DNA from: Candidatus Nitrosopelagicus brevis
GTDB taxonomy: Archaea > Thermoproteota > Nitrososphaeria > Nitrososphaerales > Nitrosopumilaceae
Assembly: GCF_000812185.1 (NCBI RefSeq)
Contig: NZ_CP007026.1
Coordinates: 234,426-266,425, forward strand
Reading direction: 5' to 3'
DNA: 32,000 nt
The notes under the pieces are model-generated. The model saw nothing but the letters and a program-made list of their open reading frames with translations, was not told the DNA's origin and ran no database searches. Positions 20,685 through 26,236 of this stretch are shown here, piece after piece (position 1 is the stretch's first letter; every line of letters starts with the position of its first letter). A program made the translations under genes and the position numbers.

Positions 20685-21035
20685 ATGCAGATACAAATGA
20701 ACAGATCAATAGTATTAGGCACACTTCTCGTAGGTGTTTTCTCATTGCCACTAATGTTGGCTGGTCCAGCATTTGCTCAATACATGGGCAGTGGTGGCGA
20801 AGGTGCTCAAGACGGTGGACATCCATCAATGTCTTTGGAAGCTCAATTAGAACTCGCAAAGAGAAAAGTTGACTATGCAGCAGATAATCCAGGTGCAGGT
20901 TCCGGTACTCCATACATGGATGCTGGAGGTGTATTAGGTGCATCAGCTATCGCAGCCGCAATCTTTGGTGGTATCGCAGGTGCTTTCTTCTTAAGAGGAA
21001 GAACCGGAAAATACGCCAAACCAGGAACAGGATAA
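20685..21035 (+). CDS. Small exported, C-terminally anchored membrane protein; candidate accessory AMO subunit (AmoY/AmoZ-like)
   Basis: 116 aa. Signal peptide with AFA-QY cleavage-like site, a Gly/Ala-rich ~55-aa ectodomain, a C-terminal TM helix (VLGASAIAAAIFGGIAGAFFL) and a basic tail. GC content is raised, as in the amo genes. Two minus-strand ORFs overlap it and look spurious. Confidence 0.6.
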   Translation: MQIQMNRSIVLGTLLVGVFSLPLMLAGPAFAQYMGSGGEGAQDGGHPSMSLEAQLELAKRKVDYAADNPGAGSGTPYMDAGGVLGASAIAAAIFGGIAGAFFLRGRTGKYAKPGTG

Positions 21036-21141
21036 TCTCCTTCCTTACTTCTTATTTTATTCCTAAACCTTAGCATTGGCTGATCTCGGCGTCTAATAAT
21101 TAAAAAAAATCTTTATATCGACCTCTGAATTCAAAATATTG

Positions 21142-21411
21142 ATGATTCCTGTATTCGGAACAATCTTGAGTATATTGTCTAGTCTGACCGGACAACTCGG
21201 TCCAAACTATGACCCACTATTCTACGATGTTATGGTATACATCTTTGGAACTATCATGTTCACAATATTCCTACTCGCACTGATTGCGTACTGGGTACGT
21301 ATTCATGGATGGGGATACAAAGATAATCGTGAAAGATGGGTCGATGAACTTGACAAACACTTTGAGAATGAGGGCATCGGTTTAATTCCTGATAACGGAA
21401 AATACTGGTAA
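21142..21411 (+). CDS. Small membrane protein; candidate accessory AMO subunit (AmoY/AmoZ-like)
   Basis: 89 aa from the ATG at 21142; the ORF track uses the TTG at 21139. One weak hydrophobic segment (IPVFGTILSILSSL), one strong TM helix (VMVYIFGTIMFTIFLLALIAYWV), and a charged C-terminal tail. A TATA-like tctttatatcg lies about 25 nt upstream. Confidence 0.6.
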   Translation: MIPVFGTILSILSSLTGQLGPNYDPLFYDVMVYIFGTIMFTIFLLALIAYWVRIHGWGYKDNRERWVDELDKHFENEGIGLIPDNGKYW

Positions 21412-21519
21412 ATTCAATCTCTTTCTTTTCTATTTTATACGCGTCCCTAGTGAAAACTTTGTTCAAAAATCTTTAACCTGATATTCATAATTGACTTGGT
21501 GTTATCTTGCTAGATTCTT

Positions 21520-22041
21520 CTAAAGGTCTGGAGGTAAGAAATCTGCATCCTTTGATGTGTCGTAGTCTTTTGAGGTAAATTCTGCTCTGTACGTATATCC
21601 ATCTTCTATTAACTCGTTGATGAAATGTGGTGATTCTTTACCGTTGACGATAATCTTGGATTTGCTTAGTTCCATATCTCTGATAGGGAAATCCCATGAC
21701 CATAAGAAATGGCCTATCTCAAATGGATATTCCTCAGTCCACTCTGCATAGATGGTTCCATCGTCTGTTAGGGTGTAAAGCGATCTCTGGCATCCGTCTT
21801 CAAATCCTATGTTTGCTGGAATATCTGCTCTGTTCTTGTCTATGTATAATTCCAATTGGGCTGAAATGACAAATTGAGTATCTCGCTCATTTATGCAGAC
21901 TTTGAGAGGATCGTCTTTACTAATCTGACCTTGAATTAGGCTACTTCCAACTCCTACTGTAATTGCAATTATTGCGGTAATTGCTAAAAATCTTAGAGTC
22001 TTTTTTCTCTTTGCTGGATCTCCTAACCCTGGATATTTCAT
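21520..22041 (-). CDS. Uncharacterised N-terminally anchored extracytoplasmic protein linked to amoB
   Basis: 173 aa. Basic N-terminus and one TM helix (LRFLAITAIIAITVGVGSSLI), then a soluble domain with exactly two Cys (C49, C84). I did not recognise a catalytic motif. Confidence 0.65.
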   Translation of the reverse strand: MKYPGLGDPAKRKKTLRFLAITAIIAITVGVGSSLIQGQISKDDPLKVCINERDTQFVISAQLELYIDKNRADIPANIGFEDGCQRSLYTLTDDGTIYAEWTEEYPFEIGHFLWSWDFPIRDMELSKSKIIVNGKESPHFINELIEDGYTYRAEFTSKDYDTSKDADFLPPDL

Positions 22042-22075
22042 AGCAAAACTGGATTAGTTTGGAATAAAGTCTTTT

Positions 22076-22402
22076 CTAAGCCTCTGCTAAATCATCGATA
22101 ATCTCTAAAGTATCAAATTGGTCTTGGTGGTCTGCTATGAAAAATGTAATTGGTGTCGAATCCACTTCGACCCATTCTGACTCTCCTTCGAAAGGCAGAA
22201 AGTCTTCAACTGCCAGATTGTTAGGACCTGAAAATCTAACTAGTACTTTTTGCTTTTTTTTTAATTTGAATGGTAGTTTTAGGACTTTGCCTCTTCTTTC
22301 ATCTTGTATGTTTATTGTATAATCGTCGCCTCGGAATTCTACTTTGCCTTTGAAGTAGCTTTCGTGAATATTCAGATGATCAATTTTGAATACGTGAACC
22401 AT
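22076..22402 (-). CDS. Uncharacterised small cytoplasmic protein next to amoB
   Basis: 108 aa with no TM helix or signal peptide, a Lys-rich centre (KLPFKLKKKQK) and an acidic C-terminus. It lies 34 nt upstream of the 173-aa gene on the same strand, so the two are probably co-transcribed. Confidence 0.6.
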   Translation of the reverse strand: MVHVFKIDHLNIHESYFKGKVEFRGDDYTINIQDERRGKVLKLPFKLKKKQKVLVRFSGPNNLAVEDFLPFEGESEWVEVDSTPITFFIADHQDQFDTLEIIDDLAEA

Positions 22403-22558
22403 GATTGGTTTAACCTATCCGAAGATAAAAGTAAATTGTCATTTTTAATCGTGAGTAAATATTAATCTATACTTAATTATTTGTTAAAAAAATTAAGTAG
22501 ATGAAACTTTGTGTATGCACTTAGATTTGTAATTCAATAAAAGGAAAAAAGAGTGAGT

Positions 22559-23125
22559 TTAGATTACTTGCCAAGGTCGTGTTGCAAATGTGATTACATA
22601 ACCAACTGCAATGATAATTGATTGATATGCGATGTTGGTATATGGAATAGGTTTGAGAATTGGTTCTCCTTCTACAACTACGGTTTGTCCTGGTCCAAGT
22701 CCAGGTCCTACGTGCTCAATGTTCAATTGAGTGTGGACGTGATAAACTCCTGGTTCAAGAGCACGTGCTGAGATTTCATAATCGACAACATCGTTACCTG
22801 GAATGTCAAAGACATTACCTGGTGGATCTCTTGCTAGAATCTCCCATCTGTTACCTGCGTTAGTTGACTCTGAGAAAATTGATGACCATGCACGCATGTC
22901 TGAATCAATCAAACTTACGAATGCACCGCTCAAAGTTAGAACTTCACCGGTTTGGAGGGATTGTCTGTTGAATGTTTCATCCTCAATTCGAATGAAACGA
23001 CTTTGCAATTGTGCTTGTACACCGTGGCCTTCAGCAGTTTGAATCATTGTTGCTACATTAGGTCCAAAGACTCCAACTACCATTACGGTTGCAAGTGCAA
23101 ATGCCATTACTTTTCTATCTACCAT
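22559..23125 (-). CDS. amoB: Ammonia monooxygenase subunit B (archaeal short form)
   Basis: 188 aa. N-terminal signal/TM, then EGHGVQAQLQSRFIRIED, a cupredoxin-like body and a C-terminal TM helix. It closely resembles Nitrosopumilus AmoB as I remember it, and is divergent from amoC. Confidence 0.93.
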   Translation of the reverse strand: MVDRKVMAFALATVMVVGVFGPNVATMIQTAEGHGVQAQLQSRFIRIEDETFNRQSLQTGEVLTLSGAFVSLIDSDMRAWSSIFSESTNAGNRWEILARDPPGNVFDIPGNDVVDYEISARALEPGVYHVHTQLNIEHVGPGLGPGQTVVVEGEPILKPIPYTNIAYQSIIIAVGYVITFATRPWQVI

Positions 23126-23214
23126 TGTTATCCCTTAATTGTAAACGACAGAAATGAGGAATTTAAGTTTTAACTATCGTGTCGATCCACGTTATTTTCC
23201 TCATAAAACATTCC

Positions 23215-23240
23215 AATGTTAATCATTAATGTTAATCATT
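23215..23240. promoter_or_regulatory. Tandem 13-bp palindromic motif in the amoB/amoC divergent intergenic region
   Basis: aatgttaatcatt occurs twice back to back (23215-23227 and 23228-23240). Each copy is AATG-N5-CATT. Confidence 0.4.
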
Positions 23241-23393
23241 AAAATGATGAAAAAAATTAATAAAAAAATTGTATTTTTTAAATTTATAATTGAAAAATTT
23301 ATGAAATTTTCCCATCAAAAAATGAATTTTTTGAATAAAAATCTCTAAATTCCAACCTCGTGGCTTATATTCCAAAAAGCACGTATAGATACT

Positions 23394-23957
23394 ATGGCAC
23401 AAATGCCGGCATTACTCCCAAAAGAAGTCGAAATCCAGAGATTGAAAAAAATCTGGTTAGTAGTCATCGCTATGGGATCAACAGCCGCATCCGTAGAAGT
23501 CGACAACTTTGTCGATGGTTCACTCCATCAGACTTCTATTAGAGATTCAGCATTCACTCCAGCACACTGGTGGTTATACTCTCACTTTGTAGCACTACCA
23601 CTTGGATGGGGATTCGCAGCAATCTATGATAGAAAAGTCCCAGTATTGAGAGGACCAAACAACTCTATGAACACAGGTCTAAAGATGACAATCTTAGGTT
23701 ATCTTGCAACCATGTTTACTATTGGTGTTAACGAGATGTGGCACTTTTGGTTCGTCGAAGAAATCTTCGCAGTTCCAAACCACTGGATGTTCAACATGGG
23801 TGTCGTCGTAGCCTTCATGGGTGCTCTAGCTTACGTAGTTAGAGTCTATGCAAGACTCGTCGAATTAGGTGCAGAAACACCTGGTGAAAACCCATATGTT
23901 GCAGAAATGTACAAAATGGCCCTTGAGGGTAAATTGTACAGCAGATCCATACCATAA
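23394..23957 (+). CDS. amoC: Ammonia monooxygenase subunit C
   Basis: 187 aa. MAQMPALLPKEVEIQRLKKIW..., multiple TM helices, HWWLYSHF and EMWHFW motifs. Matches archaeal AmoC. A TATA-like cttatatt lies about 27 nt upstream of the ATG. Confidence 0.95.
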   Translation: MAQMPALLPKEVEIQRLKKIWLVVIAMGSTAASVEVDNFVDGSLHQTSIRDSAFTPAHWWLYSHFVALPLGWGFAAIYDRKVPVLRGPNNSMNTGLKMTILGYLATMFTIGVNEMWHFWFVEEIFAVPNHWMFNMGVVVAFMGALAYVVRVYARLVELGAETPGENPYVAEMYKMALEGKLYSRSIP

Positions 23958-23959
23958 TC

Positions 23960-23988
23960 AAGTACAAATTCGTACTTTGTTTTTTTTA
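23960..23988 (+). terminator. Hairpin plus T-tract after amoC
   Basis: aagtac-aaattc-gtactt is a perfect 6-bp stem. It is followed by tgtttttttt, immediately after the amoC stop. Confidence 0.45.
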
Positions 23989-24068
23989 TGCTCCTACCTA
24001 ATGGTAGATCGGTTGGTGCCCAGAATCTAGGAAAGACTTTAATAGATTCTGTCGACTGATAATTCTAT

Positions 24069-24431
24069 ATGACACTTCCAAAAGGATTTGGTTCAGGTGG
24101 CGGAGGCGGAGCAGGTTCTGCTGACGTCGAGAAAATGATTGGCCGTCGTGTTGAAAACATGACTGGAATGATCACTGCATCATTTATCGCAGCATGGCTA
24201 GCAACATTTGGTGGTACTGCAGCAGGATATTTTGTATATCCTTGGGCATATCCTACACCAAGCGGACATTATGCATTTATCGTCCTGACCATTATAGAAG
24301 CAATTGGTTACCTCTTCTGTGTCAAAGTTATGGAAGAAGGAACAACTAAGAAAAGTAACGGTATAGTTGGCGGAGTATTAGGTGGAGTCACCATTGGTAC
24401 AATCGCAATCGTTATGTTCGTAGGAAAATAA
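24069..24431 (+). CDS. amoX: AmoX (ORF38-like small membrane protein of the archaeal amo cluster)
   Basis: 120 aa. Gly-rich N-terminus and three hydrophobic helices. It sits between amoC and amoA, as in other AOA. Confidence 0.85.
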   Translation: MTLPKGFGSGGGGGAGSADVEKMIGRRVENMTGMITASFIAAWLATFGGTAAGYFVYPWAYPTPSGHYAFIVLTIIEAIGYLFCVKVMEEGTTKKSNGIVGGVLGGVTIGTIAIVMFVGK

Positions 24432-24439
24432 TCAAACTC

Positions 24440-24462
24440 AGTCCTAAAGGACTTTCCTTTTT
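24440..24462 (+). terminator. Hairpin plus T-tract after amoX
   Basis: agtcc-taaa-ggact stem-loop followed by ttccttttt, 9 nt after the amoX stop. Confidence 0.45.
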
Positions 24463-24482
24463 ATCTATTCTAGTCACGGTTA

Positions 24483-24499
24483 CGTGCGCACGATCTCGG
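24483..24499 (+). promoter_or_regulatory. GC-rich box upstream of the amoA TATA element
   Basis: A perfect 10-bp palindrome cgtgcgcacg (24483-24492) runs into gatctcgg (24492-24499). The TATA-like tttttatata at 24512-24521 lies about 25 nt before the amoA ATG. Confidence 0.4.
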
Positions 24500-24542
24500 T
24501 ATTTTCCCAAATTTTTATATACTAACCGACAGGAATATTTTC

Positions 24543-25193
24543 ATGGTCTGGCTTAGACGATGTACTCACTACTTATTCATAGTAGTAGTCGCAGTCAACT
24601 CAACTTTGCTAACAATCAACGCAGGGGACTACATCTTCTATACTGATTGGGCCTGGACATCGTTTGTAGTATTCTCAATATCTCAAACACTTATGCTCAC
24701 TGTAGGTGCGTGTTACTATCTCACCTTCACTGGAGTTCCAGGAACCGCAACGTACTATGCATTAATCATGACAGTCTACACATGGATTGCAAAAGGTGCA
24801 TGGTTCGCATTAGGTTACCCATATGACTTCATCGTTACACCAGTTTGGCTACCATCAGCAATGCTGTTGGACTTAGCGTACTGGGCAACAAAGAAGAATA
24901 AGCACTCTCTGATACTGTTCGGCGGAGTCTTAGTTGGAATGTCATTGCCACTATTCAACATGGTCAATTTGATCACTGTGGCTGACCCACTAGAGACTGC
25001 ATTCAAGTATCCAAGACCAACGTTACCACCATATATGACCCCGATAGAACCGCAGGTAGGTAAATTCTACAACAGCCCTGTTGCACTTGGTGCCGGTGCT
25101 GGAGCAGTATTAGCCTGTACATTTGCGGCTTTAGGTTGTAAACTTACAACATGGACATACAGATGGATGGCCGCTTGGTCAAAGTGGGATTAG
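24543..25193 (+). CDS. amoA: Ammonia monooxygenase subunit A
   Basis: 216 aa. MVWLRRCTHYLFIVVVAVNSTLLTINAGDYIFYTDWAWTS...WSKWD is near-identical to Nitrosopumilus AmoA as I recall it. Confidence 0.98.
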   Translation: MVWLRRCTHYLFIVVVAVNSTLLTINAGDYIFYTDWAWTSFVVFSISQTLMLTVGACYYLTFTGVPGTATYYALIMTVYTWIAKGAWFALGYPYDFIVTPVWLPSAMLLDLAYWATKKNKHSLILFGGVLVGMSLPLFNMVNLITVADPLETAFKYPRPTLPPYMTPIEPQVGKFYNSPVALGAGAGAVLACTFAALGCKLTTWTYRWMAAWSKWD

Positions 25194-25372: not shown

Positions 25373-26236
25373 TTGGCACAAGAATATAGACAAATTGCAA
25401 TATCGGAGCCAAAACCATTTGTAAAATGGGTTGGAGGAAAAAGGCAACTCATGCAAGAATTGGAAAATAATTTTCCAAAACAATTTGGAACATATCATGA
25501 GCCATTCTTAGGTGGAGGTGCTGTAATGTTCAATTTGTTATCAAAAGAACCAAAATTGTCATGCAATGTATCTGATTTTAACTCTGATTTGATATTGGCA
25601 TATATTACAATTCGTGATAAACTTGGAAAACTCATAGAATCTTTAGAAAACCACTCAAAGAATTACCACGATGATTCTACAGAATACTATTATGAAGTAA
25701 GAAAACAAGAGCCAAAACTACAGATTGAAAAAGTATCTAGATTAATTTTCCTCAACAGGACCTGTTTTAATGGATTATACCGTGTAAACAAAAAAGGTCA
25801 ATTCAACGTACCTCTTGGCAGATACACAAATCCAAATATTGTAAATAAAGAAAATCTAACTTCTGTTAGTAAAATTCTACAATCTGAAAAAATCAAAATT
25901 TCATGCAGAGGTTTTGAGGCAGTTTTAGACGATACCAAAAAGGGTGATTTGATATATTTTGATCCTCCATATCAGCCAATTAGCAGTACTGCAAATTTTA
26001 CTAGCTACACTCATAGAGATTTCACTGAAGATGACCTTGAGAGATTAGCCACTTTGGCAAATCAACTCAATTCCAAAGGCTGTCATGTATTACTCTCAAA
26101 TTCAAATTCCAAAGTTGTTAAGGATATTTTTTCGGAAAAGCATTGGAAAATTTCTTCAATAAATGCAAATCGAGCAATCAACTCTAATGCTCAAAAGAGA
26201 ACTGGACACAAAGAAATCATAATAAAAAATTATTAA
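25373..26236 (+). CDS. Dam-type (D12 class) N6-adenine DNA methyltransferase
   Basis: 287 aa. KPFVKWVGGKRQL, the AdoMet motif EPFLGGGAV, NRTCFNGLYRVN and catalytic IYFDPPY. It needs the TTG start at 25373, because the conserved N-terminal motif precedes the first in-frame ATG. Confidence 0.85.
   Translation: MAQEYRQIAISEPKPFVKWVGGKRQLMQELENNFPKQFGTYHEPFLGGGAVMFNLLSKEPKLSCNVSDFNSDLILAYITIRDKLGKLIESLENHSKNYHDDSTEYYYEVRKQEPKLQIEKVSRLIFLNRTCFNGLYRVNKKGQFNVPLGRYTNPNIVNKENLTSVSKILQSEKIKISCRGFEAVLDDTKKGDLIYFDPPYQPISSTANFTSYTHRDFTEDDLERLATLANQLNSKGCHVLLSNSNSKVVKDIFSEKHWKISSINANRAINSNAQKRTGHKEIIIKNY

Follow-up and report, generated by a model that had tools for sequence, protein, structure and literature searches.

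Much of marine nitrification depends on archaeal ammonia monooxygenase (AMO), an enzyme whose subunit make-up was not resolved before 2026. The amo gene cluster of Candidatus Nitrosopelagicus brevis lies in a 32,000-nucleotide stretch of contig NZ_CP007026.1 (positions 234,426 to 266,425 of the forward strand; NCBI RefSeq assembly GCF_000812185.1), referred to here as the window, in whose numbering all coordinates are given. Two small genes of this cluster, encoding proteins of 108 and 173 amino acids (p108 and p173), are the subject of the present analysis. Pfam and NCBIfam searches confirm amoA, amoB and amoC, and amoB (22559..23125, minus strand) is matched by both Pfam PF04744 and the NCBIfam AmoB model. 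The p108 open reading frame (ORF; 22076..22402, minus strand) begins 156 nt downstream of amoB on the same strand and is followed, after a gap of exactly 34 nt (22042-22075), by the p173 ORF (21520..22041, minus strand). Convergent with p173 is the 90-aa ORF of amoY (21139..21411, plus strand), and next to it lies the 116-aa ORF of amoZ (20685..21035, plus strand); both were assigned by position and synteny. For the pair itself, the coordinates agree exactly with the initial annotation of this DNA, which had placed 108- and 173-aa ORFs on one strand after amoB, 34 nt apart. Neither protein matches a Pfam or NCBIfam family, in keeping with the earlier statement that no catalytic or cofactor motif could be recognised in either, and sequence and profile searches of the PDB returned no match for p108 or p173.

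In Nitrosopumilus maritimus, Nmar_1500-1503 are amoA, amoX, amoC and amoB. Nmar_1506 and Nmar_1507 were named amoY and amoZ, and in most Nitrosopumilaceae the amoABCX and amoYZ clusters were reported to lie '1-2 genes apart' (Hodgskiss et al. 2023, PMC10030591). p108 and p173 are these spacer genes, which that study set aside as AMO candidates for lack of conservation throughout the ammonia-oxidizing archaea (AOA). While a review of April 2026 still listed no archaeal AMO structure, the native N. maritimus enzyme has since been described by cryo-electron microscopy (cryo-EM) at 2.88 A, with eight subunits per protomer (bioRxiv preprint 10.64898/2026.08.31.748207, 1 September 2026). The subunits of this complex include AmoA, AmoB and AmoC, together with AmoE, an integral, membrane-anchored extra subunit resolved in the native complex (PDB 9XJ2), and AmoH, an unidentified poly-Ala subunit that closes the base of the complex on its cytoplasmic side; AmoY and AmoZ are called AmoF and AmoG. 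Nmar_1504 is a soluble beta-barrel according to the same preprint and does not belong to the complex. No further paper mentioning Nmar_1504 or Nmar_1505 was found in the literature searched.

The locus tag of AmoE is nowhere stated in the preprint, whose Figure 1a draws AmoA-G within the amo cluster and Nmar_1504 as a dashed box. The equation of Nmar_1505 with AmoE is reached by elimination, because the cluster in that figure, the identity of Nmar_1500-1503 and the naming of Nmar_1506 and Nmar_1507 as amoY and amoZ leave no other gene. By position and architecture, p108 and p173 are the orthologues of Nmar_1504 and Nmar_1505 (NmAmoE), respectively. Like NmAmoE, p173 has its gene within the amo cluster, flanked by an Nmar_1504-like gene and amoY, an arrangement found in about 45 loci, and combines a transmembrane (TM) segment with a folded domain that matches no Pfam or NCBIfam model. 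p108 occupies the position of Nmar_1504 directly after amoB and, like the N. maritimus protein, is soluble, acidic and all-beta in its AlphaFold2 model, with no TM segment. The link between AMO and the pair suggested in the initial annotation is therefore upheld by synteny and by the reported presence of AmoE in the complex (10.64898/2026.08.31.748207). The description of the pair as uncharacterised is not, since the pair already appears in this very recent preprint. The association of p108 and p173 with AMO is accordingly not new in itself.

p108 and p173 are real genes under strong purifying selection, as their homologue counts, low ratios of nonsynonymous to synonymous divergence (dN/dS) and invariant residues attest. 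At a threshold of E<=1e-3, p173 has 1633 homologues and p108 has 535, and those with names belong to Nitrosopelagicus or Nitrosopumilaceae. Against four Nitrosopelagicus genomes, dN/dS is 0.01-0.04 for p108 and 0.04-0.08 for p173. Invariant residues number 29 in 48 distinct p173 orthologues and 19 in 51 distinct p108 orthologues; those of p173 include a PG..KR motif near the N-terminus and a DFLPP motif at the C-terminal end. The p108 alignment was used to scan GTDB species genomes and yielded 59 loci (N. maritimus SCM1 is not among them), whose gene order was read by tblastn with the window proteins. The order amoB>p108>p173<amoY<amoZ occurs in approximately 45 of the 59, which bears out the expected conservation of the pair beside amoB. 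Among them are loci of Nitrosopelagicus, single-cell genomes of marine group I, Nitrosopumilaceae from groundwater and aquifers, CSP1-1 and one Nitrosopumilus genome, and the order survives in loci with rearranged amoA, amoX and amoC or without amoC. Wherever the contig continues, p173 follows every amo-linked p108, usually at a spacing of 34-60 nt. The same-position gene of the Nitrosopumilus genome (L056) encodes a protein 55% identical to p173. With the groundwater and aquifer members (L024, L027, L052), the distribution seen here extends that of NmAmoE to Nitrosopumilaceae of these habitats.

The topology of p173 is predicted with a single TM helix at residues ~14-38 (21928..22002, minus strand), where the 19-residue Kyte-Doolittle profile peaks at 2.26; in the AlphaFold2 model the helix covers residues 9-42. 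Six Lys or Arg residues occur within residues 1-18, and because they precede the TM segment the N-terminus is expected to be inside and the following domain outside. This ectodomain (residues ~45-160; 21562..21909, minus strand), delimited by AlphaFold2, Foldseek and alignments, is acidic, with an isoelectric point (pI) of 4.3. p173 contains the pattern LELYIDKNRADIPANIGFEDGCQRSLYTLTDDGTIYAEW and only two Cys, C49 and C84, which probably form a disulfide; its His and Met residues number two each. The N-terminal anchor, outward-facing domain and probable disulfide of the earlier description are thus all retained.

The AlphaFold2 model of p173, whose input alignment extended to distant homologues, has a predicted local distance difference test score (pLDDT) of 86, exceeding 90 over residues 45-160. 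All of its best Foldseek matches in the PDB are beta-grasp proteins, led by Mth1743 (1ryj; probability 1.0, E 7e-3) and including HVO_2177, Urm1, ThiS, SAMP1, MoaD, RnfH and the transcobalamin beta domain, although no PDB match reaches E<=1e-3. A weak NCBIfam ThiS match in one relative (P0288) agrees with this, and the ectodomain is accordingly classed as a beta-grasp domain. ThiS, MoaD, Urm1, SAMP and Mth1743 have only the fold class in common with its core. Unlike these proteins, p173 is predicted to lie outside the cytoplasm on a membrane anchor; it has a long insert that contains Cys, and its C-terminus has no Gly-Gly. A function as sulfur carrier or protein modifier was rejected on account of the ...DFLPPDL terminus and the location of the domain outside the membrane. 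Bacterial PmoD/AmoD and the orf4 'AmoE', which are CuA-type cupredoxins, resemble p173 in being encoded downstream of amoB and in being membrane-anchored periplasmic domains linked to copper monooxygenases. However, their fold is that of cupredoxins, their TM helix is C-terminal and they carry Cu ligands, and no homology between them and p173 was found. The name AmoE is shared by different proteins: it has been given to the bacterial orf4 protein and, in the N. halophila structure, to another, small helical protein.

The evolutionary origin of the p173 ectodomain can be traced beyond the AOA. An exhaustive phmmer search with p173 against 1.8 billion cluster representatives returned 131 matches, many of them proteins of 150-200 aa with a TM anchor and domain as in p173 and 23-34% identity to it; P0267 and P0305 were set aside as spurious repeat-protein matches. 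These relatives are rich in His and share the motif C.NH..MHIHP.L.I..G....IPANIGI...CM.P.HTHD..G.IHVE. p173 matches this His-rich family at E-values of 1e-9 to 1e-4, and C49, P75, C84 and T90 are invariant in a 19-sequence alignment. Common to both are the N-terminal TM anchor, the domain, the Cys pair and the IPANIGI...C...T..D.G motif frame. On this sequence evidence, the p173 domain is homologous to a widespread His-rich, membrane-anchored family. The initial annotation had been loosely reminded of just such a family with LHTHD..G.IH motifs whose His residues are missing from p173, and this impression proved correct. Examples with a single TM segment are WP_014805608.1 (M. chubuense pMYCCH.01), WP_257750618.1 (a Pimelobacter plasmid) and many proteins of the candidate phyla radiation and other bacteria. 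The family has no Pfam or NCBIfam model and no PDB relative detectable by sequence.

The gene neighbourhoods of the His-rich relatives (loci L062-L065, L071 and L075-L078 were examined) point to extracytoplasmic metal handling. For example, one member directly follows a gene for an HMA-DsbD_2-Cupredoxin_1 protein and an HMA P-type ATPase, another directly precedes a Cupredoxin_1 gene, and a further one follows a thioredoxin gene. Members on actinobacterial plasmids lie beside P-type ATPases, MerR-, ArsR- and CopY-type regulators, DUF305, TlpA and a cadmium transporter; four further contexts were uninformative. The family is thus a candidate new extracytoplasmic metal-binding domain and may deserve its own Pfam entry.

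In the AOA proteins, the putative ligand cluster of this family has been replaced almost completely. Eleven His-rich members were compared, in window numbering, with the commonest residues of 48 amo-linked AOA orthologues. All eleven carry His at positions 58, 60, 89, 91 and 98 and Glu at position 100, and 10/11 carry Asp at position 92. The corresponding residues in the AOA orthologues are K/V at 58, S at 60, Y at 89, L/I at 91, T/S at 92 and Y at 98, whereas E at 100 is retained; the window protein has V58, S60, Y89, L91, T92 and Y98. Nearly all 48 orthologues have lost the five His and the Asp, His persisting at position 89 in one and at position 98 in two. The AOA orthologues have also gained an invariant H111. 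The two groups therefore differ in both ligands and setting: an H/D/E cluster, frequently in metal-resistance islands, characterises the His-rich family, whereas AOA p173 retains only E100 of the cluster and is encoded in the amo cluster.

These substitutions bear directly on the function of p173. The initial annotation had proposed that a periplasm-facing protein embedded in the amo locus could serve in AMO assembly, in copper delivery or in the handling of hydroxylamine or NO. Such a chaperone or handling factor, as opposed to a structural subunit, would fit an outward-facing, membrane-anchored protein encoded beside a copper enzyme, with relatives that adjoin Cu-type P-type ATPases, HMA-DsbD-cupredoxin proteins, cupredoxins, thioredoxins and metal-responsive regulators; the invariant H111 and the retained E100 could be read in the same way. 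However, loss of the ancestral His cluster in the AOA argues against copper or other metal handling through the ancestral site, the entire protein has only two His and two Met residues, and AmoE is resolved in the native complex according to the preprint (10.64898/2026.08.31.748207). The proposed roles are unsupported, and a delivery or handling function for p173 appears unlikely. Because the cluster was lost, AmoE is read here as a structural or surface-shaping subunit and not as a metal carrier.

AmoE-type domains with 44-61% identity to p173 also occur in two fusion proteins. In P0259 (L073, 2874-3575) the domain follows a possible cupredoxin/amicyanin-like domain, with an NCBIfam E-value no better than 0.028, and in P0245 it follows a signal peptide and an unassigned 250-aa domain.

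The 108 residues of p108 comprise a Lys-rich stretch (KLPFKLKKKQKVLV) and an acidic tail (DHQDQFDTLEIIDDLAEA), contain no Cys and have a pI of 5.0. The best 19-residue Kyte-Doolittle window reaches 0.59, and no TM segment or signal peptide was found in p108 or is conserved across its 51 orthologues, in agreement with the initial description of a soluble protein with a Lys-rich core and an acidic tail. The AlphaFold2 model (pLDDT 79; predicted template modelling score, pTM, 0.73) comprises seven strands and one helix. Foldseek returned nothing significant from the PDB, the best E-values being 0.14-0.9; these best matches were a double-psi-barrel phage RNA polymerase, the p97 N-domain and barrels of the HIV-protease type. 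The profile and structure searches called for initially were thus productive for p173, with its beta-grasp fold and His-rich homology, and gave no significant match for p108. Pfam and NCBIfam matches to RimP SH3 and GLMA_C were sub-threshold noise, and an interpretation of the RRGK and DS motifs as PilZ-like was abandoned, as the PilZ model gave no match.

In the preprint, the Nmar_1504 structure is likened to the C-terminal domain of NhAmoB, with a similar electronegative surface, and the protein pulls down AmoB cupredoxin domains in vitro (10.64898/2026.08.31.748207). There, Nmar_1504 is read as a cupredoxin-like periplasmic module; p108, for its part, lacks an export signal and shows no similarity that could be detected to the C-terminal domain of AmoB/PmoB. 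A comparison of the p108 family with a profile of this domain, built from three PmoB sequences and N. europaea AmoB taken from PDB alignments, gave an hhalign probability of 0.08%, BLASTP produced no alignment, and PF04744 matched 0/38 family members even at E<=10. PmoB, AmoB and other cupredoxins are likewise absent from the top 50 Foldseek matches of p108, although PmoB and AmoB structures were in the library. Because there is neither a conserved signal peptide or TM segment nor detectable AmoB/PmoB C-terminal similarity, p108 is most likely cytoplasmic.

A cytoplasmic p108 does not sit well with action at the periplasmic face. If p108 were instead a detached cupredoxin-like module that acts in the pseudo-periplasm on the electronegative surface and in ammonium capture, the resemblance and pull-down reported for Nmar_1504, the acidity of p108 and its position directly after amoB would all be accounted for. 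The lack of a conserved signal peptide or TM segment in all 51 orthologues, the failed comparisons with PmoB and AmoB, the other barrels found by Foldseek and the existence of p108 paralogues away from amo genes make this explanation improbable, and the first two of these findings challenge the ammonium-capture interpretation of the preprint. The in vitro pull-down leaves the in vivo site of Nmar_1504 unsettled.

The stand-alone paralogues just mentioned occur in ten loci (L032, L039, L044, L045, L047, L049, L054, L055, L057 and L059) that have no amo genes and no conserved neighbour. They are 50-68% identical to p108, and their neighbours vary, including genes for an S-adenosylmethionine (SAM) methyltransferase and an EF-like GTPase. 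Inspection of these neighbourhoods revealed no conserved, informative partner. In Nitrosopumilus, the amo-linked p108 (L056; 43% identical, with an insertion) diverges more than the stand-alone copies do.

Synonymous sites set the pair apart from its amo neighbours. The proportion of synonymous differences (pS), measured against nine Nitrosopelagicus genomes, is 0.05-0.32 for amoA, amoB, amoC, amoX, amoY and amoZ and 0.40-0.73 for p108 and p173, the latter in the same range as the 0.37-0.71 of the flanking serS, DHH, S15 and methyltransferase genes. Across window positions 20685-25193 and loci L001-L017, the synonymous divergence of the six recognised amo genes is thus 3- to 8-fold below that of p108, p173 and the flanking housekeeping genes. 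The frequency of C at third codon positions (C3) is 0.21 in p108, 0.22 in p173, 0.18-0.26 in the amo genes and 0.06-0.15 in other genes. Codon bias, judged by GC3/C3, was rejected as the cause of the low pS of amo genes, as p108 and p173 have elevated C3 yet no low pS.

This contrast raises the question of whether one or both genes might be mere passengers, without AMO function, between the amoABCX and amoYZ clusters. Synonymous divergence that matches housekeeping genes and not amo genes would be expected of passengers, as would p108 paralogues in unrelated contexts and more distant p173 homologues, the partly His-bearing intermediates P0262 and P0277, that are not near amo genes; the exclusion of both genes as AMO candidates for want of conservation in all AOA (Hodgskiss et al. 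2023, PMC10030591) points the same way. Set against this are the reported presence of AmoE in the cryo-EM complex (10.64898/2026.08.31.748207), an adjacency that survives rearrangement of amoA, amoX and amoC, the resemblance of both genes to amo genes in C3 codon usage, and an upstream motif that p173 has in common with amoX in Nitrosopelagicus. Taken together, these observations leave passenger status with little to recommend it.

The upstream motif lies in the p108-p173 spacer, where AGAAA(A/C)GACTTTA remains unchanged even when two loci share only ~70% identity at the protein level. In the window, it is represented by a BRE/TATA-like element, AGAAAAGACTTTA (22065..22077, minus strand), located 23 nt 5' of the p173 ATG and identified by spacer alignment and motif count; BRE denotes the TFB-recognition element of archaeal promoters. 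A one-mismatch copy, AGGAAAGACTTTA (24029..24041, plus strand), lies 27 nt 5' of amoX, and the 13-nt motif common to the two genes is AG[A/G]AAAGACTTTA. The pattern A[AG][AG]AA[ACG]GACTTTA occurs 53 times over 754 kb of loci. Of these occurrences, 42 lie 23-25 nt 5' of a p173 ATG, corresponding to 42/47 p173-bearing loci, and 7 lie 27 nt 5' of amoX, in Nitrosopelagicus only. The remaining 4 are elsewhere, 2 of them on contigs that end just before p173. The motif could represent either a BRE/TATA promoter element common to both genes or a binding site for a regulator.

A TATA-like box is also present upstream of p108, where the amoB-p108 intergenic alignment reveals CTTTTAT (22425..22431, minus strand) 22 nt 5' of the ATG. 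Because every gene of the amo cluster has such a box ~20-40 nt before its start codon, the cluster genes appear to be individually promoted, which suggests nearly leaderless transcripts. Immediately after the amoB stop codon, a T-rich tract, CTCTTTTTTCCTTTTATT (22536..22553, minus strand), is kept in 9/9 aligned loci; it resembles an archaeal terminator and is probably that of amoB. Separation of the pair is tolerated in one large-genome Nitrosopumilaceae metagenome-assembled genome, in which a transposase-like ORF of 244 aa lies between p108 and p173 (L042, 10399-11700) and both flanking genes are intact. With a TATA-like element for each gene, this insertion and the stand-alone p108 paralogues, the term 'two-gene unit' used initially was an overstatement, and the pair is better described as a conserved neighbourhood than as a demonstrated operon.

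The reading that best accommodates these findings, to which a probability of roughly 0.7 is assigned as a whole, is that p173 is AmoE, a recruited structural subunit, and that p108 is a cytoplasmic AMO-associated accessory factor. AmoE would then be a supernumerary subunit of archaeal AMO in Nitrosopumilaceae. In the complex, its TM helix would pack into the membrane-embedded region, the short basic N-terminus would be cytoplasmic, and the acidic, disulfide-stapled beta-grasp ectodomain would lie on the outer, pseudo-periplasmic face. This ectodomain would descend from a membrane-anchored family with a cluster of five His, Asp and Glu, tied to heavy-metal and copper homeostasis loci; the His cluster would have been lost in the AOA lineage and the protein recruited to build or shape the surface of the complex instead of carrying metal. 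p108, a small acidic soluble beta-barrel, would assist AMO in assembly, stability or regulation and would not be a stoichiometric subunit. Within this reading, the two genes with their conservation and synteny, the signals of topology, the class of fold, the homology to the His-rich family and the loss of its ligands are results of the present analysis. The complex membership of AmoE and the exclusion of Nmar_1504 are taken from the preprint and concern N. maritimus only (10.64898/2026.08.31.748207), whereas the equation of Nmar_1505 with AmoE, the structural role of AmoE, the location and role of p108 and the function of the promoter motif are inferred. A further proposal, in which p108 acts at the cytoplasmic AMO face, either as the AmoH density or as a docking factor, and AmoE is a former copper-homeostasis protein recruited after loss of its His cluster, is speculative and carries a low probability.

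Several points weigh against the favoured reading. The AmoB-cupredoxin pull-down of Nmar_1504 and its cupredoxin resemblance (10.64898/2026.08.31.748207) conflict with a cytoplasmic p108. p108 and p173 lack the synonymous-site conservation typical of amo genes, which could reflect lower expression or looser coupling to AMO. Orthology of p173 with NmAmoE rests on position, architecture and the 55% identity to the same-position gene of L056, and the source on AmoE is a preprint that has not been peer-reviewed. What the present analysis adds to the preprint is modest and testable, namely the descent of AmoE from a His-rich family, the argument on p108 from topology and homology, the promoter-like motif and the contrast in synonymous divergence.

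On the far side of the amo genes, the window encodes a D12-class (Dam-like) N6-adenine DNA methyltransferase (25373-26236, plus strand; PF02086, E 5e-66). Its gene adjoins amoA, and this adjacency is kept in most Nitrosopumilaceae loci.

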